Shown here in pieces: positions 866 to 20,213 of a stretch of 64,000 nucleotides of DNA. A program made the position numbers and the translations under genes. The stretch's first letter is position 1. The number at the start of each line of letters is the position of its first letter. The notes under the pieces are model-generated. The model did no database searches and was not told where the DNA came from. It saw only the letters and a list, made by a program, of their open reading frames with translations. The DNA is taken from assembly GCA_001785445.1 (NCBI GenBank), contig MFTV01000010.1, positions 19,235 to 83,234 of the forward strand, in the 5' to 3' direction. This stretch comes from Candidatus Nomurabacteria bacterium RIFCSPHIGHO2_02_40_30. Lineage in GTDB: Bacteria; Patescibacteriota; Minisyncoccia; Phycocordibacterales; UBA9973.

Positions 866-1471
866 ATGAATGATGAAGAAGAAATACAAAATAAATCCCT
901 CGATGCTACTCGGGATGATTCTGTTGAATCAGATACTACGGAAGTAGAGGAATTTGAATACAATGACGACGGCGAGGAAGATTTAAAGAAAACTCTGAAA
1001 AAGCTGCGAGCTGATTTAAAATCTTGCCAAAAGGAAAAGGAAGAATATCTGACCGGCTGGCAGAAAGAGCGGGCAGAGTTTGCTAATTATAGAAAAGGCG
1101 AAGATGACAGAAAGACGATGTTTTCGGAATCAATGCGTGAGCATATACTTTCGCGCTTTTTGACTGTTATAGACAGCTTCGATATGGCTTTCGCCAATAA
1201 GCAGGCTTGGGAGAAAGTTGACGAAAATTGGCGCAAGGGTGTGGAGTATATCCATTCTCAAATGAATACTATTTTTGAAGATTATGGGGTCAAGCAAGTA
1301 GGCACGGTAGGAGAAGCTTTTGATCCAAGTATTCATCAGTCTATAGAAGTAGTAGAAACGGACAAAAAAGAACTCGACCACACAGTTTCAGATGTTATTC
1401 AAAAAGGCTACAAGCTGGGCGAACGTGTTATGCGTCCAGCTCGAGTGAATATATACGAATATAAGGAATAA
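866..1471 (+). CDS. grpE: Nucleotide exchange factor GrpE
   Basis: Acidic N-terminus followed by a coiled coil, then a GrpE core: ...FANYRKGEDDRK...LTVIDSFDMAF...AFDPSIHQSIEVVETD...GYKLGERVMRPARV. Confidence 0.85.
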   Translation: MNDEEEIQNKSLDATRDDSVESDTTEVEEFEYNDDGEEDLKKTLKKLRADLKSCQKEKEEYLTGWQKERAEFANYRKGEDDRKTMFSESMREHILSRFLTVIDSFDMAFANKQAWEKVDENWRKGVEYIHSQMNTIFEDYGVKQVGTVGEAFDPSIHQSIEVVETDKKELDHTVSDVIQKGYKLGERVMRPARVNIYEYKE

Positions 1472-1502
1472 TATCTATTCTAATATTCTATAGAATTATA
1501 GA

Positions 1503-3158
1503 ATGAAAACAGAAACCAAAAACTGCGCAGACTGTCAAAATAAATTCATAATAGGTGAAGGAGATTTAAAATTATACGAACAAGTAGGGTTGAAGATTTC
1601 TCGCAAGTGTTTCGACTGCCGGACAAAACAGCATTTTATATTTTCTGTCTTCGGCAAATTTCGAAAAGGAGTTTCGGATTTATCTGGTGAGAGCTTAATA
1701 ACAGTTTTCCCAAATAAATCAAGATATCCAGTATATAAATCACATGAATGGTGGAGTGATGCTTGGGATCCGATGACCTACGGACAAGATTACGATCCAA
1801 ATCGCTCGTTTTTCGACCAACTCAAACAACTCCAAGAAAAGGTTCCGCGACCTCATCAAATAGGCCAAAATAACACTAATTGCGATTGGTGTGATGACGC
1901 TTGGAACTGTAAAAATTGCTATCTTTCTCGTTCCATGGATAAGTGTGAAAACTTGAGTTATGCCTATCGGGTGCTTGATAGCAAAGACTCGTTCGATATA
2001 ACTTACAGTTTCAACTTACAAAATTCTTACGACTGTCTTTTTTGCCATGATTCTTTTAATTTAAATTTTTCCGAAAACTCTCGGGATTGCATAGATTCTT
2101 ATTTTCTTTTCGATTGCCGCAATTGTCAAAATTGTTTCATGAGCTACAATTTACGCAACAAGCAATATTGCATTCGTAATAAACAATATTCTAAAGAAGA
2201 ATATAAACAAGAACTCAAAAAAATCAGATTAGATTCACATAAAAATCTAGAAACTCTAAAAAGTGAATTTGAAGACATATTAAAAAAAGAGGCTGTCCAT
2301 AGGGAAAATTTCAATGTCCGAACCAGTAGTTCAGTAGGCAATTATATGACTGATTGCGATAAATGCGTAAATGTTTTCTCTTGGGAAGAATCACAAAATT
2401 GCCGCAATTGCTTGCGAGGTCTTCGCGCAAAGGACTGTATCGATCAAAGTTTTTCGTGGAATACCGAACTATCAGGCAACAATGGAGTCGTAGACGGAGG
2501 ATATCAAATAAAGTACTCCGGCGGATCTTCGACCGGTAGATTCTGTGAATATGTTGATTTGTGCAAAGAGGTTGAGTATTGTTTCGGCTGTGTTGGCCTT
2601 CGCAAAAAGAAATACTGCATTTTAAATAAACAGTACAACAAAGAAGAATATGAAAAATTAAAAGCGCAAATTATTACCAGCATGGAAACGCGAGGCGAGT
2701 ATGGAGACTTTTTTCCTTATTCCATGGGAACCGGCTATTACAATTTATCCAATGGTATAATATATTTCCCCGATACAACCAAAGAAGAAGTTTTAAGAAA
2801 AGGCGGTTATTGGTTAGAAGAAGATCTTACGCAAACTGACGGCATACCATCTTCCAAACTTCCAGATAGTATATTAGATACCTCTCCGGAAATTTCCTCT
2901 CAAGCGTTGATTTGTCCTGAAACACACTATCGATTCAATATTGCAGTTGCAGAATATGAATTTCATAAAAGAAAAGGTTTTGCATTACCCCGCACTCATT
3001 TTGACCAAAGAATCTTAAATCGGATGCGAAAAATGGTTATTAAAAGTTATCCTTATACGTGCATTTACTGCCGAAAAGAGATAAGTGCTTATTATCCGCC
3101 GGAGTGGGAATATAAGAAAATAGCCTGCGAAGAATGTTACAAGCAAAACATAGCCTAA
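1503..3158 (+). CDS. Cysteine-rich multi-zinc-ribbon protein, paralog 1 of 5 (function unknown)
   Basis: 551 aa. N-terminal CxxC..CxxC ribbon, conserved W-W-S-D-x-W-D-P-x-x-Y-G-x-x-Y-D motif, and central Cys/Asn-rich repeats (DCRNCQNCF..NLRNKQYCIxNKQYxKEEY occurs twice). C-terminal CxxC...CxxC. Overall architecture is shared with ORFs at 3184, 4929, 15673 and 38008. Confidence 0.8.
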   Translation: MKTETKNCADCQNKFIIGEGDLKLYEQVGLKISRKCFDCRTKQHFIFSVFGKFRKGVSDLSGESLITVFPNKSRYPVYKSHEWWSDAWDPMTYGQDYDPNRSFFDQLKQLQEKVPRPHQIGQNNTNCDWCDDAWNCKNCYLSRSMDKCENLSYAYRVLDSKDSFDITYSFNLQNSYDCLFCHDSFNLNFSENSRDCIDSYFLFDCRNCQNCFMSYNLRNKQYCIRNKQYSKEEYKQELKKIRLDSHKNLETLKSEFEDILKKEAVHRENFNVRTSSSVGNYMTDCDKCVNVFSWEESQNCRNCLRGLRAKDCIDQSFSWNTELSGNNGVVDGGYQIKYSGGSSTGRFCEYVDLCKEVEYCFGCVGLRKKKYCILNKQYNKEEYEKLKAQIITSMETRGEYGDFFPYSMGTGYYNLSNGIIYFPDTTKEEVLRKGGYWLEEDLTQTDGIPSSKLPDSILDTSPEISSQALICPETHYRFNIAVAEYEFHKRKGFALPRTHFDQRILNRMRKMVIKSYPYTCIYCRKEISAYYPPEWEYKKIACEECYKQNIA

Positions 3159-3183
3159 TACACATTTACGCTATAGCGTATAT

Positions 3184-4872
3184 ATGCAAATGAACCAAGA
3201 AACAAAAAATTGTCAGAATTGTAAAAAAGACTTCACCATAGAGTCGGAGGATTTTAATTTTTACGAAAAGATAAAAGTTCCGCCACCGACAAGGTGTTTT
3301 GAGTGCCGACAACAGAGGCGCTATGCGTGGAGAAATGAACGGACACTATATAGGAGAAATTGTGATTTGTGTAAAAAAAGCACGGTGACGATTTATTCTC
3401 CAAACAAGCCGTACAAAGTTTACTGCAATGAATGCTGGTGGGGCGACGGCTGGGATGCTTCTTCCTATGGGCGAGATTTTGATTTTACTAGGCCATTCTT
3501 CGAGCAATTTGCAGAACTACAGCACGAAGTGCCCCGCATGGCGCTCCTCAATAAAAATAGTGTAAATTCCGACTATACCAACCATTCCGGTGACAACAAA
3601 AATATTTACCTTTCTTTTTCTACGTGGGGGTCTGAAGATGTGATGTATAGTACTTGGGTTTTTTATTCCCGTGACTGCATGGATTCTAGTTTTATTTATG
3701 AAAAAGGTGAACGATTATACGAAATTATTGATTCTCGCACATCCTATCAATGTCAATACGGGCTTTTCTTGAAAGACTGTTCATCTTGTTACTACTGCTA
3801 TGACTGCCGAGGGTGCAACAACTGCTTTATGTCCAGCAACTTGCGAAACAAAAGTTATGTCTTCAAAAATAAACAATATACGAGAGTTGAATATTTGAAA
3901 AAACTAAAGGAATACGATTTATCTTCTCACCTTGTTCGTGAAGGATTAAATAAAGAGTGGAAAGACATGATGCAAAAAGATGCAATTCATCGATATGTGA
4001 TAAGTGAGAGGAATGTGAATTCTACTGGGTCTTTAATTTTTGACTGCAAAAATGTGAAAGATTCTTTTGAAGTTAATAAAGGTGAAGATTCTAAATATCT
4101 GTATTCTACTATCGACCCCAAAAATTGTATGGATTTATATCATGTGGGGCTAAATCTAGAACTGTGTTATGAATTACAGGGTTGTACTCGCACATCCAAT
4201 TGCCAATTCTGCCATCTTTGTTATGACAACATGAACGCAGTGTACTGCGATACTTGCCAAAACAGCCAGAATCTATTCGGCTGTGTCTCAGTGAAAAAGG
4301 GCGAGTATATGATTTTTAATAAAAAGTACTCTAAAGAAGAATATTTGACACTAAAAGAAAAGATTATCGAACATATGAAAAAGACAGGCAGAGAGGAAGG
4401 TGAGTATGGAGAATTTTTCCCACCAAGTATCGCGCCTGTGTATTACAATGAAACACAGGGGAATTTATATATGCCTATGACTAAAGATGAAGTCTTAGCA
4501 AAAGGCTGGCATTGGGAGGACAATGTTCCGAGGACTTTCGGCAAGGAGACAATTAAGAGCGGAGCCATTCCAGACAAAATTGAAGATGTGTCGGACAGCT
4601 ATTTAAGTGAAATTTTTATTTGTATTGATTGTTCTAAAAATTACAATATAACCCAAAACGAGCTTCTTTTTTACCGCAAAGAAATTCTTCCACTCCCTAG
4701 GAAGTGTCCGAATTGTCGCTATAAAAGAAGATTTGATTTACGTCCACCGAGAAAGTTATGGCATAGACAGTGCATGAAAGAGGAGTGTCCAAATGAATTT
4801 GAAACTACTTATGCCCCCGAACGACCTGAAAAAGTGTATTGCGAAAGCTGCTACAACAAAGAAGTTTATTAG
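3184..4872 (+). CDS. Cysteine-rich multi-zinc-ribbon protein, paralog 2 of 5
   Basis: N-terminus QETKNCQNCKKDFTIESEDFNFYEKIKVPPPTRCFECRQQRR and the WWGDGWDASSYGRDFDFTRPFFEQF motif. C-terminus CPNEFETTYAPERPEKVYCESCY has C-x2-C-x17-C-x2-C spacing. Directly tandem to paralogs 1 and 3. Confidence 0.85.
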   Translation: MQMNQETKNCQNCKKDFTIESEDFNFYEKIKVPPPTRCFECRQQRRYAWRNERTLYRRNCDLCKKSTVTIYSPNKPYKVYCNECWWGDGWDASSYGRDFDFTRPFFEQFAELQHEVPRMALLNKNSVNSDYTNHSGDNKNIYLSFSTWGSEDVMYSTWVFYSRDCMDSSFIYEKGERLYEIIDSRTSYQCQYGLFLKDCSSCYYCYDCRGCNNCFMSSNLRNKSYVFKNKQYTRVEYLKKLKEYDLSSHLVREGLNKEWKDMMQKDAIHRYVISERNVNSTGSLIFDCKNVKDSFEVNKGEDSKYLYSTIDPKNCMDLYHVGLNLELCYELQGCTRTSNCQFCHLCYDNMNAVYCDTCQNSQNLFGCVSVKKGEYMIFNKKYSKEEYLTLKEKIIEHMKKTGREEGEYGEFFPPSIAPVYYNETQGNLYMPMTKDEVLAKGWHWEDNVPRTFGKETIKSGAIPDKIEDVSDSYLSEIFICIDCSKNYNITQNELLFYRKEILPLPRKCPNCRYKRRFDLRPPRKLWHRQCMKEECPNEFETTYAPERPEKVYCESCYNKEVY

Positions 4873-4928
4873 TAAACAGCACCAGCTACCATGTACTAGT
4901 ACATAGTAACAATAAATTGTCATTATAT

Positions 4929-6620
4929 ATGCAGAGTGAAACAAAAAATTGCCAAAACTGTAAAGGTGATTTCGTCATCGAACCGGATGATTTTGGGTTT
5001 TATGAACAGATGAAAGTGCCCCCACCAGTATGGTGTCCGCAGTGCAGGCTACTTCGCAGAATGAATTGGTATAGTTATAGAATTCTGTATAAAAGAAAAT
5101 GTGATTTTACCGGTGAGAATATTATTACAATCTATCATCCGGATTTGCCTTACAAAGTTTATAAACAAGATATTTGGTGGAGTGACAAGTGGGACCCAAA
5201 GAGTTATGGCCGGGAGTATGATTTTTCGCGGCCTTTTTTCGAGCAGTTTAAAGAGTTACTAGATGAGGTGCCAAAGGCGGCTCTGCATACAGAATATACT
5301 ACTATGATAAATAGTGAATATTGTAATGCTGCAAGTTACTTGAAAAATAGCTACCTTTGTTTTAAGCACATTACAGGGGAGGATTCTGCCTACACCAACG
5401 TTGTTTCAAATACAAAAGATTCTCTGGATGTAGCTTATTCTTTAGATCCTGAACTTTGCTATGAAATAGTGGACTGCCGTAAATGCTTCCAGGTATTTTT
5501 CTCACAGGATTGTGAAAATTGTCAGAATATTTATTTCTCACGAGATTTAATGAATTGTGGGGATTGTTTTGGCTGTACTTCACTTCGCAATAAAAATTAT
5601 TGCATTTTCAATCAGCAATACACCAGAGAAGAATATTACAAGAAACTTTCGACTTTTGATTTGGGTTCAGTAAAAAATTTACAAGATTTTAGAAAGAAAG
5701 CTTACGAACTTTCTCTGCGTTCTCCCCGAAGGGCATTTCAAGGCAGAAACAATACGAATGTCTCCGGAGACTATGTGTATAATTCAAGAAATGCCAAAAA
5801 TGTCTATTTTATATCCGACTCTGAAAATATAAGGTATACCCAGTTGTTTATAAAAGGAGGAGTACACAATTGTTATGACTTTACAGCTTTTGGTTCTGCC
5901 AGTGAATGGGTTTATGAGGCTACATGGACTGGTCTTAATACTTCCAATGTTAAATTCAGTGTCTGGAATTATCGCAATCACGATACGGAGTATACTTTTG
6001 GTTGTCATGGCAGTGAATACTTGTTTGGCTGTGTCAGTCTGACTAAAGCGTCATATTGTATTTTTAATAAACAATACACGAAAGAAGAATATTTCCCACT
6101 AGTTGAAAAAATTAAAAAACAAATGAATCAGATGCCTTTTGTAGATAGAAGGGGGCTGGAACACAAATATGGCACGCAAATTCCTATTGATCTTTGTCCG
6201 TGGGCATATAACGAGTCCACAGCTTATGAATTTTTTCCAATCACAAAAGAGGAAGCTATCGCTAAAGGTTTTACTTGGCGTGACTCTGACCCGCGGGAAT
6301 ATCTGGACGCTTCTATTACAGTGCCGGAACATATCAAAGATGTAACTGATGAGATTTTGAAAGCGATTTTGAAATGTGTTGCTTGTGGCAAAAATTATCA
6401 AATTATATCCAAAGAATTAGTATTTTTACGCCGTTTTAATTTTCCTATACCGAGCCATTGCCCACTATGTCGAGACCGAGCTCGTATTAAACAATTAAAT
6501 CCTATGGAGACATATGACCGCACGTGTGATAAATGCAGCATATCAATTACTACATCCTATGCCCCAGACCGTCCCGAAATAGTTTACTGCGAAAAATGCT
6601 ATCAGCAGGAAGTTTACTAG
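4929..6620 (+). CDS. Cysteine-rich multi-zinc-ribbon protein, paralog 3 of 5
   Basis: Start moved to ATG 4929 (MQSETKNCQNCKGDF...), which removes the overlap with paralog 2. Carries the same conserved motifs as the family. C-terminus CDKCSISITTSYAPDRPEIVYCEKCYQQEVY. Confidence 0.85.
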   Translation: MQSETKNCQNCKGDFVIEPDDFGFYEQMKVPPPVWCPQCRLLRRMNWYSYRILYKRKCDFTGENIITIYHPDLPYKVYKQDIWWSDKWDPKSYGREYDFSRPFFEQFKELLDEVPKAALHTEYTTMINSEYCNAASYLKNSYLCFKHITGEDSAYTNVVSNTKDSLDVAYSLDPELCYEIVDCRKCFQVFFSQDCENCQNIYFSRDLMNCGDCFGCTSLRNKNYCIFNQQYTREEYYKKLSTFDLGSVKNLQDFRKKAYELSLRSPRRAFQGRNNTNVSGDYVYNSRNAKNVYFISDSENIRYTQLFIKGGVHNCYDFTAFGSASEWVYEATWTGLNTSNVKFSVWNYRNHDTEYTFGCHGSEYLFGCVSLTKASYCIFNKQYTKEEYFPLVEKIKKQMNQMPFVDRRGLEHKYGTQIPIDLCPWAYNESTAYEFFPITKEEAIAKGFTWRDSDPREYLDASITVPEHIKDVTDEILKAILKCVACGKNYQIISKELVFLRRFNFPIPSHCPLCRDRARIKQLNPMETYDRTCDKCSISITTSYAPDRPEIVYCEKCYQQEVY

Positions 6621-6638
6621 AAACTTTTTAAAAAGTTT

Positions 6639-7154
6639 CTATCTCCCGAAAGCGTCGAAGAGAAATTTTTTAGTTTCTTCGTCTATGAATTGGGTGGTGA
6701 TTATCATCATCTCTGTCGTCAGACCTAAATCTTTTTTTATATTCGTGAATAGATGCTCGTACGGGTATGGGGAAATCCAAGCGGAATTTTTCAGGCAGAC
6801 GAAACCGGCTTTTTTCAGAAGATAACGCAAACTTTCGCGTTCGCTTTTTCTGTCTTCCGGCAAGTCGAGCAAAATTATTCTCCAGAGTCCGTCCCAAGAA
6901 ATATTTACCAGTGTCGTATCATTATCTAATTTTAAAGTATTCACTTTTTTCTTACCTTCTTTAGTGAGTCGTGCATATTCATTTTGTGGAGAAGAAATAT
7001 TCTCTATTAACCCAGCATCTCGAAGCCCTTTGAGGGAGCGAGTGATAGCGTATCTATTTTCAACATCTAAATTACGAAATTCAGGTAAAGAAACAGCTGT
7101 TTTTTGTCCTAGAATCTTAAGTATTTTATTTGAATAGTCTTTTTTACTTGACAT
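6639..7154 (-). CDS. Winged-helix transcriptional regulator, PaaX-like family
   Basis: N-terminal wHTH ([15 protein letters not shown]) and C-terminal [45 protein letters not shown], which matches the PaaX-type W.G.WR..DIPE...R..LR..L...GF..LQ.SVW pattern. Divergent from dnaK. Confidence 0.55.
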
Positions 7155-7254
7155 GCTTATAGACTATCATATATACTCTATTTATACAAGTTTTTCGTGT
7201 TCACGAACTACTTGTCAAATTAGCTTAATTATTAATAATAACTATATAAATCAT

Positions 7255-9168: not shown

Positions 9169-9191
9169 ATTATGTTAAAAAAATAAAAAGG

Positions 9192-9236
9192 AATGCCGTT
9201 CACTTGCGATGTTTTGCAATGTGAACGGCATTTTGC
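9192..9236 (+). terminator. Intrinsic terminator after dnaK
   Basis: aatgccgttcac ... gtgaacggcatt forms a 12-bp perfect stem, followed by TTTTG. Confidence 0.6.
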
Positions 9237-9240
9237 TGGC

Positions 9241-9456
9241 TTAGTACCAGCGACTGCTTGATTGATGCGCTCGGTTGGCGGCCTCAATGCGTGCCGCTAC
9301 TGTCGCCGAATCTTCGGCTATGGGAGCGCCTTTGGCTCGTTTGCGACTCACACAAGCCGCATTTCTGAGATCCAACAGTTTCTTTCCTGTTATCAACCCA
9401 GATTTGCGCGCACTTGCATACTTCTGTCCAGCGTTTGGGACTTGCGAATGTGCCAC
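9241..9456 (-). CDS. rpsU: 30S ribosomal protein S21 (GTG start)
   Basis: Basic 71-aa product: ...SARKSGLITGKKLLDLRNAACVSRKRAKGAPIA...ANRAHQSSSRWY. This resembles S21 (SCEKAGVL...ERKRAKASAV...RRTRLY). A GTG start is preceded by AAAGGAG with a 7-nt spacer. The locally GC-rich sequence produces overlapping spurious ORFs on the + strand. Confidence 0.5.
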   Translation of the reverse strand: MAHSQVPNAGQKYASARKSGLITGKKLLDLRNAACVSRKRAKGAPIAEDSATVAARIEAANRAHQSSSRWY

Positions 9457-9552
9457 TTTTAACTCCTTTCGTTCAAAAATTTAACACACACACACAGATA
9501 TATCAAGTATTTTTGATTTGTTGCAATTAAGTTTTTGTGATATCATATAGCT

Positions 9553-11618: not shown

Positions 11619-11648
11619 AAAGCACTAGAAGTGTGCTTTCTAGTGCTT
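11619..11648. terminator. Bidirectional hairpin between the HAD gene and a minus-strand small ORF
   Basis: aagcactagaa / ttctagtgctt forms an 11-bp perfect stem with a 7-nt loop, immediately after the HAD stop. It also lies 3' of the minus-strand ORF 11653-11835. Confidence 0.5.
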
Positions 11649-11652
11649 GATT

Positions 11653-13920: not shown

Positions 13921-13922
13921 GA

Positions 13923-15683
13923 ATGAAGATAGAAACCCAAAATTTATCATGGCTAGATATACCAAAGTCTATTTGGTATTTTCTAGAAAAAGATAAAAAG
14001 AAGTCTCTTTTTTATTTTATCGTCATTGTCATAGCATTTTTTTATGATCTCGTTCCCGCATATATTGTAGGTAAAATGGTTGATTTTTTTACTGGCTATA
14101 CACAGGGTCAATCACTTAGTCTTTTTTATTTTTATGTAGTTTTTGTAGGTGTTACTTGGATAGTAGCCTCTCTCATACGCTTAAAAAGCCATAAAGTTTT
14201 AAGTATCGCCAGTAAAAAAGCTCGTACCCGAGCACGTGTTTGGGGATTTGAGCGCTTAACCGAGTTTTCTCTCGGGTGGCATAATAAAGAAAATACAGGA
14301 AACAAATTTCAGCGAATTTTTACTGGAGCAGAAGCTATTGAAAAATGGGTATTAATATTAAGAAGAGATTTGCTTCGGATTATGGCTAACTCTGTCGGGG
14401 TGTTAATATTTTTTTTATTTCTAGACTTTAAATTTATTTCTTTAGTGCTTATATATGCGTTACTTTTTTTGTATGTCGAATTTTCGTTCGGTAAGAAAAT
14501 ACTTAGATTAAGTAATGATTTTAATCTATCTAATCAATCGGCAGGAGGGGTTTACATAGAAAGCGCAAACAATATGCTTGCTGTCAAAGCATTAGGTGCG
14601 AAAGATGGCTTGGTTTCTCGTGTTAAAGATAAAGAAACTATTTCCCGTGATCTTTCGATACAAAAAACAACTATTAGTAATTTCAAGTGGCAACTGTTGC
14701 AGTTTATAAACGGCTTTTCAATAAGTATTTTTCTTTTAATTGCTGGTTTTGCCAGTATTTCTAATGCTATAACAATTGGTATGGTTTTAGTAATATTCAC
14801 TTACTTCTCTAAACTGCAAACTTCATTAAGTGAAATAAGTAACTTACACATGGATGTAATAGATCTTCGTTCAGATCTTGGCAACATGATGCCAATATTT
14901 AAGGAGACAGAATTTATTAAGACAGGCAATGAAAGTTTTCCGAAAGATTGGCAAAAAGTTGAAATTAAAAATGGAGTTATGGATTATGGCTCTGGGCAAA
15001 TGGGGTTAAAAGATTTTAATTTAGTGTTAAAAAGGAATACCAAAACCGGTATTGCCGGGTTATCTGGCTCCGGCAAGTCTACGTTGGCAAAAATTATTTT
15101 AGGCTTATACGGCTTGAAAACAGGGACTTTTAAAGTAGGCAATAAAAATTATTATTCAATTGCGCACAACGAAACCTTGAGCAATATTAGTGTGGTTCTG
15201 CAAGAGACAGAACTTTTTAATCTTTCTTTGCGGGACAACATCACTATGATGCGCGTGGAAGACAAAGAACTTCTGGATATAGCAGTAGAAATTTCCAATC
15301 TTGATGAAGTTATAGGCCGTTTACCGGAGGGGCTCGATGCTATGATAGGTGAAAAAGGGTACATGCTCTCCGGCGGGGAGAGGCAACGTCTCGGCATTGC
15401 CCGTGCGATTTATAAAAATGCGCCAATTATAATTCTCGACGAAGCCACGTCTTCGCTTGATTCGGAGACGGAAGGCAAAATAATGGAGAAACTTTTAGGA
15501 GAGTACGGTAAAGACAAAACTTTCTTAATCATTGCGCACCGCTTGGGTACGCTTAAATATACTGACAACATTGCCGTGATGGAAAGAGGGAAAGTAGTGG
15601 AAGAAGGAAGTTATGATAAGTTAATGAACAACCAGAGCTCTGTCTTTTATAGAATGAATAAAGAAAAAAAAGATGAAAAATAG
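13923..15683 (+). CDS. ABC transporter, fused permease/ATP-binding protein (exporter type)
   Basis: N-terminal 6-TM domain. Nucleotide-binding domain has Walker A GLSGSGKST, signature LSGGERQRLGIARA, and Walker B IIILDEATSSLD. The 3' end overlaps the next gene by 11 nt. Confidence 0.85.
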   Translation: MKIETQNLSWLDIPKSIWYFLEKDKKKSLFYFIVIVIAFFYDLVPAYIVGKMVDFFTGYTQGQSLSLFYFYVVFVGVTWIVASLIRLKSHKVLSIASKKARTRARVWGFERLTEFSLGWHNKENTGNKFQRIFTGAEAIEKWVLILRRDLLRIMANSVGVLIFFLFLDFKFISLVLIYALLFLYVEFSFGKKILRLSNDFNLSNQSAGGVYIESANNMLAVKALGAKDGLVSRVKDKETISRDLSIQKTTISNFKWQLLQFINGFSISIFLLIAGFASISNAITIGMVLVIFTYFSKLQTSLSEISNLHMDVIDLRSDLGNMMPIFKETEFIKTGNESFPKDWQKVEIKNGVMDYGSGQMGLKDFNLVLKRNTKTGIAGLSGSGKSTLAKIILGLYGLKTGTFKVGNKNYYSIAHNETLSNISVVLQETELFNLSLRDNITMMRVEDKELLDIAVEISNLDEVIGRLPEGLDAMIGEKGYMLSGGERQRLGIARAIYKNAPIIILDEATSSLDSETEGKIMEKLLGEYGKDKTFLIIAHRLGTLKYTDNIAVMERGKVVEEGSYDKLMNNQSSVFYRMNKEKKDEK

Positions 15684-17451
15684 CGAAATAAAAAATTGCC
15701 AAAATTGCAAGAAAGATTTCACCGTTGAGCCGGAGGATTTTAATTTTTATGAAAAAATCAAAGTTCCTCCGCCAACTTTTTGCCCAGAATGCAGGCTGGT
15801 GCGGCGAATGCTGTGGCGTAATGAACGCTCGCTTTTCAAAAGGTCTTGCGCCAAAACGAGCAAACAAATAATCACCATGTTTCATCCGGATGCTAAGGTG
15901 GTGGTATATGACCATGACACATGGTGGAGTGACCAGTGGGAACCGACCGATTATGGAAAAGATTATGATTTTTCTAAACCGTTTTTTGAGCAATTCAAAG
16001 AATTACTTTACCGAACATCATTAGCGAATTTAGGAAATTCCAATAACGTTGGCAGTCCTTACGGCAATCACAATGCCGACTGCAAGTATTGCTATTTATT
16101 ATACGCTTCTTTCAACGTTGAACGAACACATTATTCTTATGGCGCGGTTAGATTGAAAGATTGCATGGATATGTATGTCTGTTTGCATTCCGAATTGTGT
16201 TATAACGATATTGTCAGCACTGATTTGTATAAAACTCATTTTTCTTATGACGCGGACGAGTCTGTTAATTGCTTTTTTCTGAAGTATTCTAAAAATATGC
16301 AAGACAGTATTGGCTGTATAAATTTGAGAAATAAAAGTCATTGCATTTTAAATGTAGAATATTCAAAAGAAGAGTACGAGAAAAGGAAAAAAGAGTTTGA
16401 TTTCGGCAGTTATAAAGTTTTGTTTGAATTTGAAAATTCTTTTAACAGACTTGTCCTTAATGTTCCGTACCGATATGCGCACATCATGAAATCTAAAGAT
16501 GTTACCGGAGACAATATTATAAACTCTAAAAATGTAAAGAATTGTTTTGATATTTATCAAAATGTGGAAGATTCAAAGTATTTAATTCATTGCTTGGACG
16601 CCAAGGACTGTTATGACTTATATGGCGGTGGCGCGGTGGCATCTTTAATGTACGAAGGAGTGGATATTGGAAAAGAATCGTCCAAGCAATTATTTTCCAT
16701 ACTCACTCATACTTGTTTCCAAACTTATTATACCTACATGTGCTATAACTCAAAAAATCTTTTTGGCTGTATCGGCTTGCGGGGGAAGCAGTACTGCATT
16801 TTGAATAAGCAGTATTCCAAAGAAAAATATTTTGAACTATTGCCGAAAATTATTGAGCATATGAATACCATGCCCTATAAAGATAAAAAAGGACTAATTT
16901 ATAAATATGGAGAATTTTTCCCAAGCGAATTATCGCCTTTTGCTTATAACGAGACAATTGCCCAAGAATATTTTACAAAAACTAAAGAAGAAATTGTTAA
17001 AGACGGATATACTTATAGAACTTCACCGGCAAAGGATTATCAAGCGACTATTTTGAACAAAGATTTACCAGATCATATCAAAGATGTTTCTGATTCTATT
17101 CTTAAAGAGGTGATTGCTTGTCCTAACGATGGCAAAGAACTGACTCAATGTACCAAAGCTTATCGTATTATTAAATCCGAGTTAGAATTTCTAAAAAATA
17201 ATAACATTGCTTTGCCGCGCTATTGCCCCAATTGCCGTCACTATAAAAGACTCAAGCAAAGAAATCCATTCAAACTCTGGCAGGCTAAATGTCAGTGCGC
17301 TGGGGCTAACTCTCAAAATAAAAAATACAAAAACACAATAAAACATACTCATGGAACCAAACCTTGTCCGAACGAATTTGAAACAAGCTATGCTCCTGAC
17401 CGACCGGAAATTATTTATTGTGAAAAATGTTACCAGCAGGAAGTTTATTGA
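15673..17451 (+). CDS. Cysteine-rich multi-zinc-ribbon protein, paralog 4 of 5
   Basis: MKNSEIKNCQNCKKDFTVEPEDFNFYEKIKVPPPTFCPECRLVRR..., the WWSDQWEPTDYGKDYDFSKPFFEQF motif, and C-terminus CPNEFETSYAPDRPEIIYCEKCYQQEVY. The ATG sits inside the ABC exporter stop region, which suggests translational coupling. Confidence 0.85.
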   Translation: MKNSEIKNCQNCKKDFTVEPEDFNFYEKIKVPPPTFCPECRLVRRMLWRNERSLFKRSCAKTSKQIITMFHPDAKVVVYDHDTWWSDQWEPTDYGKDYDFSKPFFEQFKELLYRTSLANLGNSNNVGSPYGNHNADCKYCYLLYASFNVERTHYSYGAVRLKDCMDMYVCLHSELCYNDIVSTDLYKTHFSYDADESVNCFFLKYSKNMQDSIGCINLRNKSHCILNVEYSKEEYEKRKKEFDFGSYKVLFEFENSFNRLVLNVPYRYAHIMKSKDVTGDNIINSKNVKNCFDIYQNVEDSKYLIHCLDAKDCYDLYGGGAVASLMYEGVDIGKESSKQLFSILTHTCFQTYYTYMCYNSKNLFGCIGLRGKQYCILNKQYSKEKYFELLPKIIEHMNTMPYKDKKGLIYKYGEFFPSELSPFAYNETIAQEYFTKTKEEIVKDGYTYRTSPAKDYQATILNKDLPDHIKDVSDSILKEVIACPNDGKELTQCTKAYRIIKSELEFLKNNNIALPRYCPNCRHYKRLKQRNPFKLWQAKCQCAGANSQNKKYKNTIKHTHGTKPCPNEFETSYAPDRPEIIYCEKCYQQEVY

Positions 17452-17454
17452 CCT

Positions 17455-17590
17455 CACCCCCAGCCTCTCTCAACCCTTCCAGACCTCCCCTTGTCAGGGG
17501 AGGCAAATGGTTTTCCCCTGATAAGGGGGATGCAAGATGGTTTAAGGAGAGGGTGGCCGAAGGTCGGGTGAGGTGAATTATGTTATAATA
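17455..17590 (+). other. GC-rich, multi-hairpin intergenic element between paralog 4 and the second TraD-like ATPase
   Basis: Outer stem acctcaccc / gggtgaggt. Inner hairpins cctcccc-ttgtca-ggggagg and tcccc-tgataa-ggggga. Very GC-rich compared with the flanking AT-rich coding sequence. Starts at the paralog 4 stop codon. Confidence 0.45.
17581..17589 (+). promoter_or_regulatory. Extended -10 promoter element (TGTTATAAT) upstream of the second TraD-like ATPase
   Basis: TGnTATAAT match 9 nt before ATG 17598. The same TTATGTTATAATA string recurs at 61898-61910 upstream of the gene at 61917. Confidence 0.4.
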
Positions 17591-17597
17591 CTTAATT

Positions 17598-19100
17598 ATG
17601 CCCAAGCCGAATCGAGTGCAGATAATAAAATATGGTCCGCCGCCGCCGGAGTTACCGGTCTTCGGAAAGGTTAAACCCGAAGACGTTTCTTTTATTGGGC
17701 GGACTAATTATGTGGCATCTCTCGAAGAAAAGAAATTTATTTTTGGCATTAAGCGCATAGACCGACGCAGGCATTTGTATATATTAGGGAAATCCGGTGT
17801 CGGCAAGAGCAAATTGCTCGAGCTTTTAATGCGCCAAGACATTACTTACAATCATGGACTTTGCCTGATTGATCCACATGGTGACGAACTTGAAGGAATA
17901 CTGGATTATATACCCAAAGAACGCATCGAAGATGTTTGCATTATTGACCCGACTGACGTTAATTTCCCGGCTTCTTTTAATCCGCTGGCGAACGTTGACC
18001 CGATGTTCAAGTTTCAGCTCACGCAAGGACTGATCGAAGTTTTTCAAAAACAATTCGGCGCCAACTGGACGCCTCGACTTGAGCACGTTTTCCGTTTCAC
18101 TTGTCTGGCGCTTTTGGATTATCCACATGCCACCATGCGTGGAATGATTTCCATGCTGACCGATAGAAATTACCGGCAGAAAGTGGTGGAGTATATTACG
18201 GATGACATGGTAAAAAGATTCTTCGCTATTGAATTCGCCGATTGGTCGGAAAAATTCGATACTGATGCGATTATTCCATTAGTTAACAAATTAGGGCAAT
18301 TTCTATCCGACCCCTTGCTTCGCAATATTTTCGGTCAAAAAGAAAATAAAATAGATATCAGCGAATTAATGAATCAGGAAAAAATAATTCTGATTAATAT
18401 TTCTAAAGGTCGGCTGGGAGAAGAAAATTCTTCTTTCCTCGGGTCAATCTTTCTCACTAAAATAAAACAAGCCGGTATGGAACGTGCCGCAATTCCGGAA
18501 AGAGAAAGAAAAGATTTCTATTTATATGTAGACGAGTTTCAAAATGTTGTTACCCAAACTTTTGAAAATATTTTATCGGAGGCCAGAAAATATGCCTTGA
18601 ATTTAACTATCGCGCACCAATATGTCGGACAGATTATTCCCAGAGTCCACCAAGCAGTGCTTGGTAATTGTGGTAGCGTGATTACTTTTCGCGTCGGCGG
18701 TGAAGACGCAGTCAAAATGAAACCTGAGTTTGCTCCGCTCTTTGATGTTAAGGACATGATCAATCTTGCCGTGACAGAGTTTTATATAAAAATGACTATT
18801 GACGGCGAATCTTACGACCCATTCTCGGCAGAAACCTTGAAAGTTTTGTCGCCAACTCATCCTTCATATAGAGAAGAAATAGTAGCCGCTTCTCACCGAA
18901 AATATTCGATACCGAAAGATGCCGCAGCCAAACTCATTGCCGAAGAAGAAGCCACTATCATTCGAAGTTCTGAGGAAAAAGCTATTATTGAAAGTAAAGC
19001 TAAGAGAAAAGAAAAAGAAAAAGGATTGGCAAGTGAAGAGGGAACAGCAGACACAAGTTCAAAAAAGAAAACTTCCCAAGAAGCTGAACCTATGATATAA
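17598..19100 (+). CDS. TraD/TraG/VirD4-family P-loop ATPase, paralog 2 (no zinc finger)
   Basis: YILGKSGVGKSKLLELL...DPHGDE, FYLYVDEFQNVV, and ARKYALNLTIAHQYVGQI...GNCGSVITFRVGGED. Colinear with the 11905 protein but lacks its CxxC tail. Confidence 0.75.
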   Translation: MPKPNRVQIIKYGPPPPELPVFGKVKPEDVSFIGRTNYVASLEEKKFIFGIKRIDRRRHLYILGKSGVGKSKLLELLMRQDITYNHGLCLIDPHGDELEGILDYIPKERIEDVCIIDPTDVNFPASFNPLANVDPMFKFQLTQGLIEVFQKQFGANWTPRLEHVFRFTCLALLDYPHATMRGMISMLTDRNYRQKVVEYITDDMVKRFFAIEFADWSEKFDTDAIIPLVNKLGQFLSDPLLRNIFGQKENKIDISELMNQEKIILINISKGRLGEENSSFLGSIFLTKIKQAGMERAAIPERERKDFYLYVDEFQNVVTQTFENILSEARKYALNLTIAHQYVGQIIPRVHQAVLGNCGSVITFRVGGEDAVKMKPEFAPLFDVKDMINLAVTEFYIKMTIDGESYDPFSAETLKVLSPTHPSYREEIVAASHRKYSIPKDAAAKLIAEEEATIIRSSEEKAIIESKAKRKEKEKGLASEEGTADTSSKKKTSQEAEPMI

Positions 19101-19115
19101 TGTCTTAATAAAGCC

Positions 19116-20213
19116 ATGAACAAAGACTACTACAACATATTAGGAGTAAATAAAAATGCTCCAAAAGAGGAAATCAAGAAGGCTTTTTATAAGCTGGCGC
19201 ATAAATATCACCCTGATAAAAAAGAGGGGAACGAAGCCAAGTTTAAACAAGTTAATGAGGCTTATCAAACTTTATCTGACGATGATAAACGAGCAAAGTA
19301 TGACCAATTTGGTCCGACGAATATGGATGGCGGCCACGCAGGACATCAGCAAGGTGGATTTGGCGGTTTTGATTTTAGTAATTTTTCAGGGGGCTTCCAG
19401 GACGGCAGTGCGAACTTTGACTTTGGCAACTTGAATGACATTTTTAGCGATTTTTTTACTGGTGGCATGGGAGAGGGCAGAAAGGAAGCTCGCCGCGGTC
19501 GAGATATCTCAACTGAAGTGCAAATTTCTTTTTCCGATTCTATTTTCGGTATTAATAGAAAAATTTTAATTACTAAAACCTCCAACTGTCTGACGTGTAA
19601 TGGTTCTGGCGCAAGGGCTGGCTCCAAAGTGGAAACCTGCAAACATTGCAATGGTCAAGGAAAGATTCGCGAATCTAAAAGAACTATTTTCGGCAATGTT
19701 GCCAGTACGAAAATCTGCGATACATGTTTGGGGACAGGCGAGGTACCGAAAGAATTATGTGAAAAATGCAAGGGTAAAGGCGTACTGCGCCGTGAAGAAG
19801 AAATCTCCATCACCATTCCAGCCGGCATACGCGACGGAGAAATGATTCGCATGACAGGTCATGGCGAAGCAATTTCCAAAGGCACAGCTGGAGACCTTTA
19901 TATTAAAATAAATGTGGCGCCGCATGCATTGTTCAAGCGCGAGGGTAATGATTTGGTTATGAATTTGAATTTAAAACTTTCCGACGCGCTTTTAGGCACA
20001 GAGTACCCAATTCAAACTCTAGACGGAGAAATCAAAGTTACTATTCCGGAAGGCGTTACCATCAATGAAATCTTGCGCGTGCGAGGCAAGGGCGTGCCTG
20101 TGTCTAAAAATAAACGTGGCGACCTATTGATTAAACTCAATATCAAACTTCCGTCAAAAATTTCTCGTACATCTCGCGCTCTCATAGAAGAACTCAAAAA
20201 AGAGGGGATATAA
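19116..20213 (+). CDS. dnaJ: Chaperone DnaJ (Hsp40)
   Basis: J-domain with HPD (YHPDKK), G/F-rich linker, four CxxCxGxG zinc-finger repeats (CLTCNGSG, CKHCNGQG, CDTCLGTG, CEKCKGKG), and a C-terminal substrate-binding domain. Confidence 0.9.
   Translation: MNKDYYNILGVNKNAPKEEIKKAFYKLAHKYHPDKKEGNEAKFKQVNEAYQTLSDDDKRAKYDQFGPTNMDGGHAGHQQGGFGGFDFSNFSGGFQDGSANFDFGNLNDIFSDFFTGGMGEGRKEARRGRDISTEVQISFSDSIFGINRKILITKTSNCLTCNGSGARAGSKVETCKHCNGQGKIRESKRTIFGNVASTKICDTCLGTGEVPKELCEKCKGKGVLRREEEISITIPAGIRDGEMIRMTGHGEAISKGTAGDLYIKINVAPHALFKREGNDLVMNLNLKLSDALLGTEYPIQTLDGEIKVTIPEGVTINEILRVRGKGVPVSKNKRGDLLIKLNIKLPSKISRTSRALIEELKKEGI

Follow-up and report, generated by a model that had tools for sequence, protein, structure and literature searches.

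A probably old, expanded Hsp70 locus in a Nomurabacteria genome, with a PaaX-like gene and a conserved palindrome beside dnaK

In the 64,000-nt stretch of DNA analyzed here (the window), from Candidatus Nomurabacteria bacterium RIFCSPHIGHO2_02_40_30, a very small groundwater organism, the genes of the DnaK system are separated by genes of other kinds, and the question is whether a heat-shock operon was recently invaded or whether the interrupted order is an old one. As a preliminary description of this DNA had it, grpE (866..1471; Pfam GrpE, E 4e-38), dnaK (7255..9168; Pfam HSP70, E 7e-246) and dnaJ (19116..20213; Pfam DnaJ, DnaJ_CXXCXGXG and DnaJ_C) all lie on the + strand in that order, and its separations of ~5.7 kb and ~10 kb were measured as 5,783 bp (grpE-dnaK) and 9,947 bp (dnaK-dnaJ). 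The dnaK ORF opens at 7153, but the start is placed at 7255, where the public gene call begins and conservation of the N-terminus sets in. Upstream of grpE lies rpsI (300..731, +; Pfam Ribosomal_S9, E 1e-37), the end gene of a ribosomal-protein/rpoA cluster. In all relatives this cluster comes before grpE; the rpsI-grpE adjacency itself was also found in relatives among the loci compared.

Between grpE and dnaK we found the three Cys-rich (CR) paralogs and the divergent PaaX-like gene described there. In relatives, the gene that usually comes first behind grpE is CR1 (551 aa, 1503..3158, +; alignment A1), whose orthologues there are 53-78% identical and directly 3' of grpE. CR2 (562 aa, 3184..4872, +) gave weak zf_Tbcl and zf_Tbcl_2 matches and has more than 6,500 homologues, with orthologues 72-83% identical in more than 100 protein clusters; its AF2 model reached a pTM of 0.76. 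CR3 (563 aa, 4929..6620, +; alignment A1) has an ORF that opens at 4839, the public gene call giving 563 aa. This set was incomplete: the ORF at 15673..17451 (+, 592 aa; alignments A1 and A2) is a fourth paralog, CR4, which is 30% identical to CR1 and 42% to CR2. Because the four are mutually only 30-42% identical, the duplications are considered ancient. Zinc-ribbon modules at the N- and C-terminus are conserved across all paralogs, CR orthologues are conserved about as well as GrpE, and the GC content of the CR genes (0.35-0.38) is native in composition (window, 0.392). CR is described as a ~560-aa cytoplasmic Cys-rich zinc-ribbon protein, and it is unstudied.

The gap between dnaK and dnaJ holds hicA, GIY-YIG, HAD, two TraD/HerA-like ATPase genes and an ABC exporter gene, all as previously listed. 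ATPase 1 (671 aa, 11905..13920, +; TrwB_AAD_bind, E 2e-11; DUF87; zf_Tbcl_2, E 7e-12; TIGR04272, E 7e-13) is a VirD4/TraD/HerA-type NTPase with a C-terminal CxxC-x17-CxxC zinc ribbon and is soluble by the lack of a predicted transmembrane segment. ATPase 2 (500 aa, soluble, 17598..19100, +; DUF87, TrwB_AAD_bind and TraG-D_C) is 44% identical to ATPase 1 and very highly conserved (87-91% identical in relatives; 243 members in its 90%-identity cluster). Both are orphan secretion-type ATPases that resemble type IV coupling proteins (T4CPs), with a gene GC of 0.41-0.43, like dnaK and dnaJ. The ABC exporter, a half-transporter (13923..15683, +; ABC_membrane and ABC_tran), starts 2 bp past ATPase 1 and overlaps CR4 by 11 bp. 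What had been taken for two separate insertions is mainly a single module that fills both gaps, made up of CR genes and soluble VirD4/TraD-like ATPases. The module is spread across the candidate phyla radiation (CPR); no homologues were found in the plasmid and phage collections searched (for CR, none in 72,556 plasmids or 50,697 phages), and no solved fold matched.

A 2.7-kb slot directly 3' of dnaK (9.2-11.9 kb) has a different content. Its first gene is orf71 (71 aa, 9241..9456, -), a GC-rich ORF (GC 0.537) that is "hypothetical" at NCBI and has an AAAGGAG Shine-Dalgarno sequence; neither it nor the ORF at 9262-9462 had a Pfam match. The rpsU gene reported after dnaK was not detectable, neither + strand ORF in 9262-9484 resembling S21, and was rejected with orf71 as the more plausible gene there. 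From the reported hicBA pair, hicA stands (HicA_toxin, E 4e-15; best placed at 9764-9985, +), and hicB (9553-9771, +), which overlaps it by 8 nt as read from the sequence, is a probable call from position and a weak DUF7387 match; the pair is absent at this position in the relatives compared. The GC-rich gene noted earlier corresponds to orf161 (161 aa, 10091..10576, -; GC 0.506 vs 0.392 for the window), for which no family match was found and whose 90% cluster has three members, the named ones Nomurabacteria. A small GIY-YIG protein (10715-10969, +; Pfam) and a HAD hydrolase (10974-11618, +; Pfam) follow, with a terminator-like hairpin after the HAD gene (11614-11644; terminator scan). A HAD orthologue occupies the equivalent slot only in L117; the slot is empty in L015 and L046, carries unrelated genes in L007, L013 and L069, and holds one or two CR genes in L016 and L030. 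On this sequence comparison, the slot is the only part of the region that looks recently variable, like an insertion hot spot.

Three structured spacers stand out. The rpsI-grpE spacer (732..865; -31.5 kcal/mol, z -4.0) is a copy of a small dispersed repeat found again at 30550-30613 and 34136-34235 of the window and in L084, L075, L117 and L014. The spacer between CR4 and ATPase 2 (17452..17573; -68 kcal/mol, z -4.6) is GC-rich, highly structured and present once in the window. A strong hairpin 3' of dnaK (9190..9234) folds on both strands (+ strand, -27.8 kcal/mol, z -5.3; - strand, -23.9 kcal/mol, z -6.8, followed by a U-run) and is likely a terminator for both. Judged from the sequence, dnaK would be monocistronic and end at this hairpin, grpE would be co-transcribed with CR1-3, and dnaJ would be the tail of an ATPase1-ABC-CR4-ATPase2-dnaJ unit. 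That the intervening genes exploit the transcription of the chaperone genes is plausible given the tight spacing, since CR1 starts 31 bp past grpE and dnaJ starts 15 bp past ATPase 2.

The PaaX-like regulator (171 aa, 6639..7154, -; Pfam PaaX_M, E 1.6e-19) consists of a winged helix and a PaaX middle (Cas2-like) domain, without the C-terminal effector domain. A Foldseek search with its AF2 model ranked the PaaX structures 8a39 (E 2e-6) and 3l09 first, and next came winged-helix repressors of the MarR and ArsR types. Its gene is divergent from dnaK in 70/71 loci, the exception (L140) having no dnaK inside the 1.1-kb flank; in L046, four small ORFs stand between the regulator gene and dnaK, and the palindrome described below is ~680 nt from the regulator gene. 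Rather than inserted cargo, as it had been counted, the gene is the most constant neighbour of dnaK and is kept even in compact loci.

Between the PaaX-like gene and dnaK sits the palindrome ACAAGTATTTnGCGGTCGCnAAATACTTGT, a 30-bp putative operator found by sequence search (ACAAGTTTTTCGTGTTCACGAACTACTTGT, 7186..7215). It has a single match in 64 kb, with 0 expected by chance, and was found in 69/70 paaX-like/dnaK spacers, 60/70 with ≤3 mismatches of 21 specified positions; no shuffle among 1,400 reached ≤5 mismatches. Across 1.82 Mb the 69 matches are confined to one site per locus, just 5' of the PaaX-like gene. The palindrome keeps a near-constant distance from the regulator start codon (21-34 nt in 54/69), and its distance to dnaK varies from 26 to 1,331 nt. 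Immediately upstream of the palindrome is the putative dnaK promoter (TTGACA-18-TATACT, sigma-70-like, 7148..7177, +; 11/12 consensus positions), the -35 of which overlaps the paaX-like start codon. It is the best-scoring sigma-70-like site in the first 20 kb, in a scan that overall was at chance level (53 sites vs 49 expected), and a TATCATATATACT block at this promoter is conserved in relatives. CIRCE, reported absent, was indeed not found with ≤3 mismatches in the 64 kb; in 1.8 Mb of relatives it matched only at 4 mismatches of 18, never in a dnaK upstream region.

Comparison with relatives bears on the age of the arrangement. The order rpsI-grpE-CR(n)-paaX-like-dnaK-[slot]-ATPase1-CR(n)-ATPase2-dnaJ, with the paaX-like gene reversed, was found in at least 10 other species-representative genomes (L002, L006, L007, L008, L013, L016, L030, L036, L046 and L069) and in many metagenome contigs, which are not all independent lineages. 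ATPase 1 follows dnaK in L007, L013, L015, L016, L030, L046 and L069, and ATPase 2 directly precedes dnaJ in L074 and L079; in L042 ATPase 2 and dnaJ are ~2.6 kb apart in reversed order. This synteny, with the same intervening families, marks the arrangement as old and rules out recent foreign insertion of the large blocks. More distant relatives (median grpE identity 50% vs 66-81%) have a compact rpsI-grpE-paaX-like-dnaK-dnaJ locus, again with the paaX-like gene reversed and no intervening CR/ATPase genes. Among 33 PaaX-like-anchored loci, grpE and the regulator gene enclose no CR gene in 24 and one to three in 9; dnaK is followed by dnaJ in 9, a T4CP-like ATPase in 17 and other or unknown genes in 7. 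The compact layout is probably ancestral, given its lower identity to the window and the general bacterial adjacency of dnaK and dnaJ, and its occurrence in the more distant relatives therefore speaks for expansion of the locus by insertion. The earlier view of a repeatedly used insertion target thus holds as to expansion and fails in that the large blocks are neither recent nor foreign.

We consider it likely that the Hsp70 locus from grpE to dnaJ was expanded long ago and became fixed in a clade, and that it is not a recently invaded operon. The ancestor would have had rpsI-grpE converging on the PaaX-like gene, itself divergent from dnaK-dnaJ. A Nomurabacteria-like branch of the CPR would then have taken one CPR-wide, two-part module into two places, the CR genes entering between grpE and the regulator gene and ATPase1-CR(n)-ATPase2 between dnaK and dnaJ; CR copy number would have drifted afterwards, and recent variation would be confined to the short slot 3' of dnaK. 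The rival view that foreign cargo entered a heat-shock operon horizontally, recently or repeatedly, with the operon as an integration hot spot, could account for that slot, with its toxin-antitoxin pair, GIY-YIG gene and two GC-rich ORFs (0.54 and 0.51 vs 0.39), its genes missing at the same position in relatives and its content differing between genomes, and the dispersed repeat in the rpsI-grpE spacer fits as well. We regard it as very improbable for the region as a whole: the order of CR1-3, the PaaX-like gene, ATPase 1, CR4 and ATPase 2 is kept in the representatives and contigs above, the blocks are native in composition, identity to their orthologues is 70-90%, comparable to that seen for GrpE and DnaK, the CR duplications are old, and CR is absent from the mobile-element collections searched. 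No ORF scanned matched an integrase or transposase family, no tRNA lies in or near the grpE-dnaJ region, and the block borders are free of all three.

The conserved interleaving of module and chaperone genes may mean a functional link beyond mere co-expression. Our best guess is that the module is a housekeeping cytoplasmic ATPase-plus-adaptor system that profits from co-expression with the chaperone genes. That the CR proteins and T4CP-like ATPases instead work with DnaK, DnaJ and GrpE in one chaperone-centred machine (for example as zinc-rich clients or adaptors, Hsp70 escort-like factors, or a hexameric ATPase in a ClpB-like or translocation role) is rather unlikely, yet it has some basis. 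The interleaving itself is conserved, beyond adjacency (grpE-CR1 and ATPase2-dnaJ); the grpE stop and CR1 start abut or overlap in L006, L007, L013 and L016; and ATPase 1 begins 20-85 bp past dnaK in L046, L015 and L008 and therefore probably shares the palindrome-controlled promoter there. ATPase 2 is also conserved at least as well as DnaK, and 15/59 CR-anchored loci contain a DnaK-system gene. Most CR arrays, however, come with a T4CP-like ATPase and lack a chaperone gene within 10 kb (Peregrinibacteria, Peribacteria, Gracilibacteria, Abawacabacteria and others), such a gene being absent from the other 44/59 loci; the DnaK system and regulator of the compact loci manage without the module nearby; no J-domain, NEF or known co-chaperone domain was detected in the CR proteins or ATPases; and selection for high expression may be all that places genes beside those for ribosomal proteins and chaperones.

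Less probable still is that the ATPases are true coupling proteins and the CR proteins are substrates or effectors passed to host cells by a Patescibacteria type IV secretion system (T4SS), with the dnaK neighbourhood incidental or supplying unfolding help. The ATPases match TrwB, TraD and VirD4 models and are ~30% identical to a T4CP within a real T4SS cluster on an Embleya plasmid, a T4CP-like ATPase lies directly beside the array in 29/59 CR-anchored loci, and the terminal zinc-ribbon modules could serve as recognition signals. Against this, the ATPases lack a transmembrane anchor; T4SS genes (virB4, a relaxase or others) did not turn up in the window, and in related loci the scan covered a few flanking ORFs; the strong conservation of CR orthologues (72-83%) is not what typical effectors show; and the zinc ribbon of ATPase 1 recurs at the CR C-termini, which suggests a common partner, not mutual recognition. 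Multi-zinc proteins with tightly bound metal are also generally poor secretion substrates. The published census cuts both ways: across 2,918 Patescibacteria genomes 5,713 homologues were counted, about two orphan T4CPs to a genome and of unknown role, and only 148 of the 5,713 are near virB4 (PMC12102498).

PaaX is an autoregulated repressor (PMC9493321), and from the conservation and exclusivity of the palindrome we infer that the PaaX-like protein is one too, with the palindrome as its operator controlling dnaK. dnaK would be transcribed from the sigma-70-like promoter, the palindrome lying a few bases 3' of the -10, about where transcription should start, and binding of the winged-helix protein there would repress dnaK and probably the regulator gene itself. 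An improbable alternative, roughly on a par with the secretion reading and marginally ahead of it, is that the palindrome belongs to another regulator or is an RNA element (for example a hairpin in the 5'-UTR of the dnaK or paaX-like transcript, or an element that stabilises that transcript) and that the PaaX-like protein regulates something else. In the predicted dnaK mRNA the palindrome would indeed come at the extreme 5' terminus, and it can fold into a hairpin (-10.4 kcal/mol); CIRCE is known to act at both the DNA and the RNA level. For an RNA element, though, a z of -2.0 makes that hairpin a weak one, the region has no Rfam match, and the spacing to dnaK is not conserved. The palindrome occurs only alongside the PaaX-like gene at a near-fixed distance, the classic layout of an autoregulated divergent repressor, and the fold of the protein is that of a winged-helix DNA-binding protein, closest in structure to PaaX. 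We found no description of such a regulator-palindrome pair in the literature. As a repressor and operator, the proposed pair would be analogous to HrcA/CIRCE and to HspR/HAIR and would fill their role in other bacteria; in these organisms, the PaaX-like regulator and its palindrome may replace the usual heat-shock switch.

The preliminary description placed grpE (866-1471), dnaK (7255-9168) and dnaJ (19116-20213) in this order on the + strand, and Pfam upheld all three identities. The grpE-dnaK gap is 5,783 bp long and the dnaK-dnaJ gap 9,947 bp. The three Cys-rich paralogs (CR1, 1503-3158; CR2, 3184-4872; CR3, 4929-6620; all +) and the divergent PaaX_M-domain gene (6639-7154, -) reported in the former were present, as were hicA, a GIY-YIG gene (10715-10969), a HAD gene, two TraD/HerA-like ATPases (ATPase1, 11905-13920; ATPase2, 17598-19100; both +) and an ABC exporter (13923-15683) in the latter. 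An rpsU gene had also been proposed; none was found in 9169-9552, where the + strand ORFs are unlike S21, and a better gene model is provided by orf71 (9241-9456, -), which is GC-rich, has a strong Shine-Dalgarno sequence and encodes a hypothetical protein of 71 aa. The ORF at 15673-17451 (+) is a fourth Cys-rich family member (CR4), so both gaps contain members of this family. The genes in the rest of the 64 kb are of common housekeeping types, encoding ribosomal proteins and tRNA synthetases and including mur/fts genes and dnaB, and no hrcA, groEL, clpB or T4SS genes are found in the annotation of this window.

The organization of the locus was compared across two sets of related loci (genomes or metagenome contigs, designated by L numbers). 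The CR-anchored set was obtained by scanning one genome per species, which gave 80 loci, all with titles from the candidate phyla radiation (CPR), labelled by tblastn with the window proteins; the regulator-anchored set was obtained by scanning metagenomes with an alignment of the PaaX-like regulator, which gave 80 further loci, where the metagenome contigs may include related populations. The order rpsI-grpE-CR (1-5 copies)-PaaX-like gene (opposite strand)-dnaK recurs in L002, L006, L007, L008, L013, L016, L030, L036, L046 and L069, and ATPase1 with more CR genes lies 3' of dnaK in L007, L013, L015, L016, L030, L046 and L069. dnaJ follows directly after ATPase2 in L074 and L079, and the two stand in reverse order, approximately 2.6 kb apart, in L042. 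In a compact type of locus (rpsI-grpE-PaaX-like gene on the opposite strand-dnaK-dnaJ), 24 of 33 loci are free of CR genes in the grpE-regulator interval, and dnaJ adjoins dnaK in 9; in the expanded type, 17 loci have a T4CP-like (type IV coupling protein-like) ATPase 3' of dnaK, and grpE is followed by 1-3 or more CR genes. Median grpE identity to the window is 50% for the compact loci versus 66-81% for the others, and intermediates exist, one without CR genes but with ATPase1 (L104) and three with adjacent ATPase1 and ATPase2 (L107, L112 and L141). We infer that the compact locus is ancestral and was expanded in one branch.

Because the interrupted order is shared among relatives, a recent insertion of the large blocks is not upheld. 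They have native GC and conserved synteny, no integrase or transposase was found among the ORFs scanned, and the sole tRNA lies at 51.9 kb; some traits of a mobile island are seen in the dnaK-ATPase1 slot (9.2-11.9 kb) alone. The view of the chaperone locus as an insertion target therefore survives, in the sense of recent events, for this slot and fails for the large blocks. Away from the chaperones, CR arrays of up to 10 copies occur in Peregrinibacteria, Peribacteria, Gracilibacteria, Abawacabacteria and others and usually abut one T4CP-like ATPase, with no chaperone gene nearby and no other conserved partner. Of the CR-anchored loci, 59 span ≥ 12 kb; a T4CP-like ATPase is present in 29 of these and a DnaK-system gene in 15. 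The locus is most likely an old, fixed, clade-specific expansion of an Hsp70 locus by a CPR-wide CR/T4CP-like module, to which a short hot spot of recent change was added.

The possibility that the module has a third conserved component was considered and rejected, the apparent gap of about 1 kb in Peregrinibacteria being a longer ATPase N-terminus and the flanking genes being unrelated between loci. The ABC half-transporter recurs beside CR arrays or the PaaX-like gene in L006, L016, L094, L122, L135, L140 and L141, as a 70% orthologue in L094 and otherwise as 25-29% paralogs that have the regulator gene on one side and the last CR gene or grpE on the other. This exporter may belong to the module as a more loosely linked third partner. 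Stand-alone GIY-YIG proteins (84-101 aa) recur in three other CPR genomes beside CR or T4CP-like genes (L025, 19326-19631; L045, 15290-15556; L074, 9707-9973; 40-49% identity), which may reflect a role in array rearrangement, or chance. Many metagenome-assembled genomes titled 'uncultured Candidatus Saccharibacteria' (TPA_asm; L002-L006, L016-L018, L026, L030 and others) are collinear with the window locus at protein identities of up to approximately 88%, and their titles are probably generic or wrong labels.

The dnaK-ATPase1 slot differs between relatives. In the window it holds orf71 (-), hicA with a putative hicB, orf161 (10091-10576, -), the GIY-YIG gene and the HAD gene; it is empty in L015 and L046, and it contains one unknown gene in L007 and L013, a PsbP-like gene in L069, a HAD gene in L117 and one or two CR genes in L016 and L030. 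The GC contents of orf71 and orf161 (0.54 and 0.51 vs 0.39 for the genome) make them the sole clear GC outliers of the region; neither has a family match, and all cluster members that carry a name belong to Nomurabacteria. HicA is supported by HicA_toxin (E-value 3.7e-15), and the candidate HicB, a 72-aa ORF upstream that overlaps it by 8 nt, has a weak match to DUF7387 and none in NCBIfam. Elsewhere, the rpsI-grpE spacer (732-865) contains an element of approximately 110 nt that folds strongly (-31.5 kcal/mol, z -4.0) and has terminal inverted repeats (AAATTCTAAAAT...ATTTTAGAATTT). Copies were found in the window at 30550-30613 and 34136-34235 and in L084 (738-822), L117 (6499-6584), L075 and L014; its recurrence at differing positions suggests a small dispersed repeat of the REP/MITE type. 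The partial copy at 34136-34235 lies inside an M1-peptidase ORF (33089-35728, -), apparently within coding sequence.

The four CR proteins are 551-592 aa long with 5-6% Cys and are without hydrophobic segments. Each has a CxxC...CxxCR ribbon at the N-terminus that is repeated close to the C-terminus, where a CxxC-x17-CxxC ribbon forms the end of the protein. They thus start and end with modules of the kind in zf_Tbcl (PF13451), zf_Tbcl_2 (PF23477) and TIGR04272, of which ATPase1 has one; the zinc-ribbon matches in Pfam and NCBIfam are weak and below the Pfam cutoffs. The center is an internal duplication (residues ~137-260 vs ~287-402, E-value 1e-10), and the ~450 aa between the ribbons have no family match in Pfam or NCBIfam, neither of which names the full-length architecture. 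Nothing was found in the PDB by sequence profile or by Foldseek, and the search for a function in Pfam, NCBIfam and PADLOC gave only the weak zinc-ribbon matches. The family comprises 2,220 clusters (50% identity, E-value ≤ 1e-30) with lengths of approximately 545-610 aa, and homologues number 0 in 72,556 plasmids and 0 in 50,697 phage genomes. The window paralogs are mutually 30-42% identical while CR2 orthologues are 72-83% identical across more than 100 clusters, which argues that the duplications are ancient and strongly constrained. CR2 itself has a match of 100% identity in Candidatus Nomurabacteria bacterium RIFCSPLOWO2_02_40_28 (Parcubacteria/Patescibacteria group), and a groundwater scaffold of 163 kb in ENA also carries this sequence.

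The divergent regulator is a 171-aa protein with a PaaX_M domain (PF20803; E-value 1.6e-19, 70.2 bits vs a cutoff of 24), and among the matches listed this domain is precomputed in 120 of 120 homologues, which are 168-191 aa long. Its AF2 model (pLDDT 82) contains a winged helix at residues 8-63 (helix-helix-helix-strand-strand). The best Foldseek structures over both domains are E. coli PaaX (8a39, E-value 2e-6) and a Jannaschia protein (3l09), followed by MarR, ArsR and PadR winged-helix repressors; by sequence profile, matches to MarR and HxlR are weak (E-value 0.03). The protein ends at residue 171, directly after the middle domain, with no C-terminal helical effector domain, and scores 29.6 bits against the TIGR02277 PaaX equivalog cutoff of 264.55. 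Some orthologues (L016, 8281-8874, -; L046, 11648-12241, -) carry a Pro/Gly/Lys-rich insertion in the winged-helix region, e.g. PSQPPLIKGGEVKNPPDKGDKGG in L016, which has the appearance of a repeat element inserted in frame.

In 70 of the 71 loci with at least 400 bp of upstream sequence, the divergent neighbor of the PaaX-like gene is dnaK. The spacers between the two genes contain a 30-bp palindrome (14-2-14; consensus ACAAGTATTTnGCGGTCGCnAAATACTTGT), found in 69 of 70 spacers and with ≤ 3 mismatches at the 21 specified positions in 60 of them; none of 1,400 shuffled spacers reached ≤ 5 mismatches. Across the 1.82 Mb of window and loci, all 69 matches lie directly 5' of a PaaX-like gene and never twice in a locus, and the window has a single copy (7186-7215). 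The palindrome lies 21-34 nt from the regulator start codon in 54 of 69 loci, with a conserved TATCATATATACT block between, and 26 to 1,331 nt from dnaK. Among promoter-like sites in the first 20 kb, the best one (TTGACA-18-TATACT, 7148-7177) ends 9 nt 5' of the palindrome; since the promoter scan as a whole performed at chance level, its position can be taken as suggestive only. Given the divergent orientation, the exclusive palindrome at a fixed distance and the DNA-binding fold, the most economical reading of these sequences is that the PaaX-like protein would act as a repressor on the palindrome as its operator, controlling dnaK and its own gene. The pair is further predicted to respond to heat.

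Known elements of heat-shock control were sought in the same sequences. The reported absence of CIRCE was borne out by a scan of the window (0 matches at ≤ 3 mismatches), and in the 1.82 Mb the CIRCE pattern (TTAGCACTC-N9-GAGTGCTAA) gave five matches with 4 mismatches each, none of them 5' of dnaK. No HAIR-like site was found at dnaK in any locus, and among the genes of the 64-kb window and of the 7 kb that precede it, Pfam annotation shows no member of the HrcA family. Rfam at gathering thresholds returned nothing in the whole window except tRNA-Glu at 51.9 kb and, at permissive thresholds, nothing over the dnaK leader, which argues against a known RNA thermometer there.

With the hrcA-grpE-dnaK-dnaJ/CIRCE operon of Bacillus and many other bacteria, the locus shares the order of the three chaperone genes, a repressor gene at the locus and a long inverted repeat between promoter and dnaK start. 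It differs in having a PaaX-like winged-helix regulator divergent from dnaK, with no hrcA in 64 kb and no CIRCE, and 5.8 kb and 9.9 kb of other genes that intervene. An autoregulated repressor at the dnaK locus and inverted repeats at the dnaK promoter are also features of HspR/HAIR in Streptomyces (dnaK-grpE-dnaJ-hspR), a logic that would apply here too; HspR, however, is of MerR type with its gene at the operon end, and HAIR is CTTGAGT-N7-ACTCAAG whereas the motif here is ACAAGTATTTnGCG-GT-CGCnAAATACTTGT. By analogy, then, the locus would resemble a repressor-controlled dnaK locus with the motif and regulator of neither system. PaaX itself, the phenylacetate repressor (E. coli W, 8a39; Jannaschia, 3l09), shares the winged helix and the PaaX middle domain (Cas2-like, for dimerisation) with the regulator; it is autoregulated on a long inverted repeat and binds phenylacetyl-CoA through its C-terminal domain (PMC9493321). 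This last domain is absent from the 171-aa protein here (PaaX being about 280-316 aa, ~305), the PaaX operator TGATTC-N27-GAATCA is unrelated to the palindrome, and the constant partner here is dnaK, with no paa genes near the regulator or elsewhere in the window annotation.

Spacing and hairpins would delimit the transcription units of the window. The spacers of grpE-CR1-CR2-CR3 are 31, 25 and 56 bp, ATPase1 and the ABC gene are 2 bp apart, the ABC gene and CR4 overlap by 11 bp, and ATPase2-dnaJ and dnaJ-membrane gene spacers are 15 and 3 bp. A strong hairpin 3' of dnaK (-27.8 kcal/mol, z -5.3) probably also ends the convergent orf71, terminator-like hairpins lie 3' of hicA and HAD, and a promoter-like site lies 5' of ATPase1. 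With the regulator gene between grpE and dnaK and the hairpin after dnaK, the three chaperone genes are non-contiguous; since the convergent regulator gene parts grpE from dnaK even in the compact form, they would not form one operon there either. In L046, L015 and L008 the ATPase1 start lies only 20-85 bp 3' of dnaK and ATPase1 probably shares the palindrome-controlled promoter with dnaK, a link that the accessory slot would sever in the window. The CR4-ATPase2 spacer (17452-17573) is GC-rich in an AT-rich genome and has nearly perfect self-complementarity (CCTCACCC...GGGTGAGG; -68 kcal/mol, z -4.6); it occurs once in the window and has no Rfam match. Possible roles are those of a terminator, an insulator or a site of processing, or it may be the remnant of a repeat element.

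ATPase1 and ATPase2 (44% mutual identity) match the TrwB, TraD, VirD4 and HerA models, with TrwB_AAD_bind (E-value 1.9e-11), T4SS-DNA_transf and TraG-D_C signatures, a PDB match to TrwB (1e9r, E-value 9e-5) and readable Walker A (GKSGTGKS) and Walker B (YVDEFQ) motifs. ATPase1 additionally has a C-terminal CxxC-x17-CxxC ribbon of the CR type. ATPase2 shares approximately 30% identity with an annotated coupling protein encoded within the T4SS cluster of an Embleya plasmid, which shows that the coupling-protein ancestry is real. A 2025 survey counted 5,713 VirD4-like homologues in 2,918 Patescibacteria genomes, about two copies per genome and 148 of 5,713 near virB4, and suggested that the orphan ATPases may be exapted for other functions (PMC12102498). 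ATPase1 and ATPase2 evidently belong to that class, and the two copies per locus here are in line with the survey figure of about two per genome. The ATPase2 cluster at 90% identity has 243 members, and in contigs where DnaK is 80-88% identical ATPase2 is 87-91% identical (tblastn), evolving as slowly or slower, a rate that is atypical of genes with the annotation of conjugation coupling proteins. Homologues of the soluble ATPase lie on 223 plasmids, of which 189 are typed non-mobilizable and which include small Bacillus plasmids with a copy annotated 'DUF87 domain-containing protein'; if these also lack an anchor, T4CP-like ATPases may have non-conjugative roles outside CPR too. A role in anti-phage defence was rejected, as the PADLOC mad8 and HerA matches (E-value 8e-15) reflect P-loop similarity of a generic kind and partner genes for defence are absent.

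Among possible functions of the module, we rank highest a cytoplasmic housekeeping ATPase-adaptor system co-expressed with the chaperones and place after it a direct functional tie to Hsp70. A third reading, in which the CR proteins are T4SS substrates and the ATPases their coupling proteins, would draw on the ancestry of the ATPases and the P-loop NTPase domain in common with VirD4, TraD and TrwB, yet it fits poorly with the high conservation of the CR proteins and is ranked last. Two further observations weigh against it: by Kyte-Doolittle analysis, an N-terminal TM anchor is absent from ATPase1, ATPase2 and the 747-aa Abawacabacteria homologue of L025, and no T4SS or relaxase genes were found in the window annotation or in the flanking ORFs of relatives, which were scanned in part. 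Unlike the known coupling proteins, moreover, one copy is fused to a zinc ribbon, and the neighbors are CR arrays, plus dnaK/dnaJ in this clade, a link that the available part of PMC12102498 does not mention. The cytoplasmic ATPase-adaptor system remains our preferred reading.

Few CPR bacteria have been cultured, and they have few stress genes; to our knowledge, the control of stress genes in this group is essentially unknown. In the literature searched, whose coverage was incomplete, we did not find the PaaX-like/dnaK pairing, the palindrome or CR arrays in CPR described. A joint reading, to which we give rather less than even credence, is that the truncated PaaX-like protein and its palindrome form a previously undescribed chaperone-gene repressor system in a large CPR branch and that CR arrays and orphan soluble T4CP-like ATPases form a new CPR-specific cytoplasmic machine tied to Hsp70. 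The regulator-operator pair, conserved in approximately 70 loci and nowhere else, is a directly testable hypothesis. For genome scans, a caution follows that a 'canonical operon' found interrupted in a CPR genome can have an ancient, fixed architecture instead of recent insertions. The orphan T4CP-like ATPases here are soluble, very conserved and linked to tandem arrays (1-10 copies) of a family of ~560-aa proteins with more than 2,200 sequence clusters and no match to a solved fold, integrated into the Hsp70 locus in one clade. These links narrow where to seek the function of the orphan coupling proteins, for which PMC12102498 offered possible exaptation only. If the joint reading is true, the repressor system would correspond in function to HrcA/CIRCE and HspR/HAIR, and the CR/ATPase machine would explain the approximately two orphan 'coupling proteins' per Patescibacteria genome.
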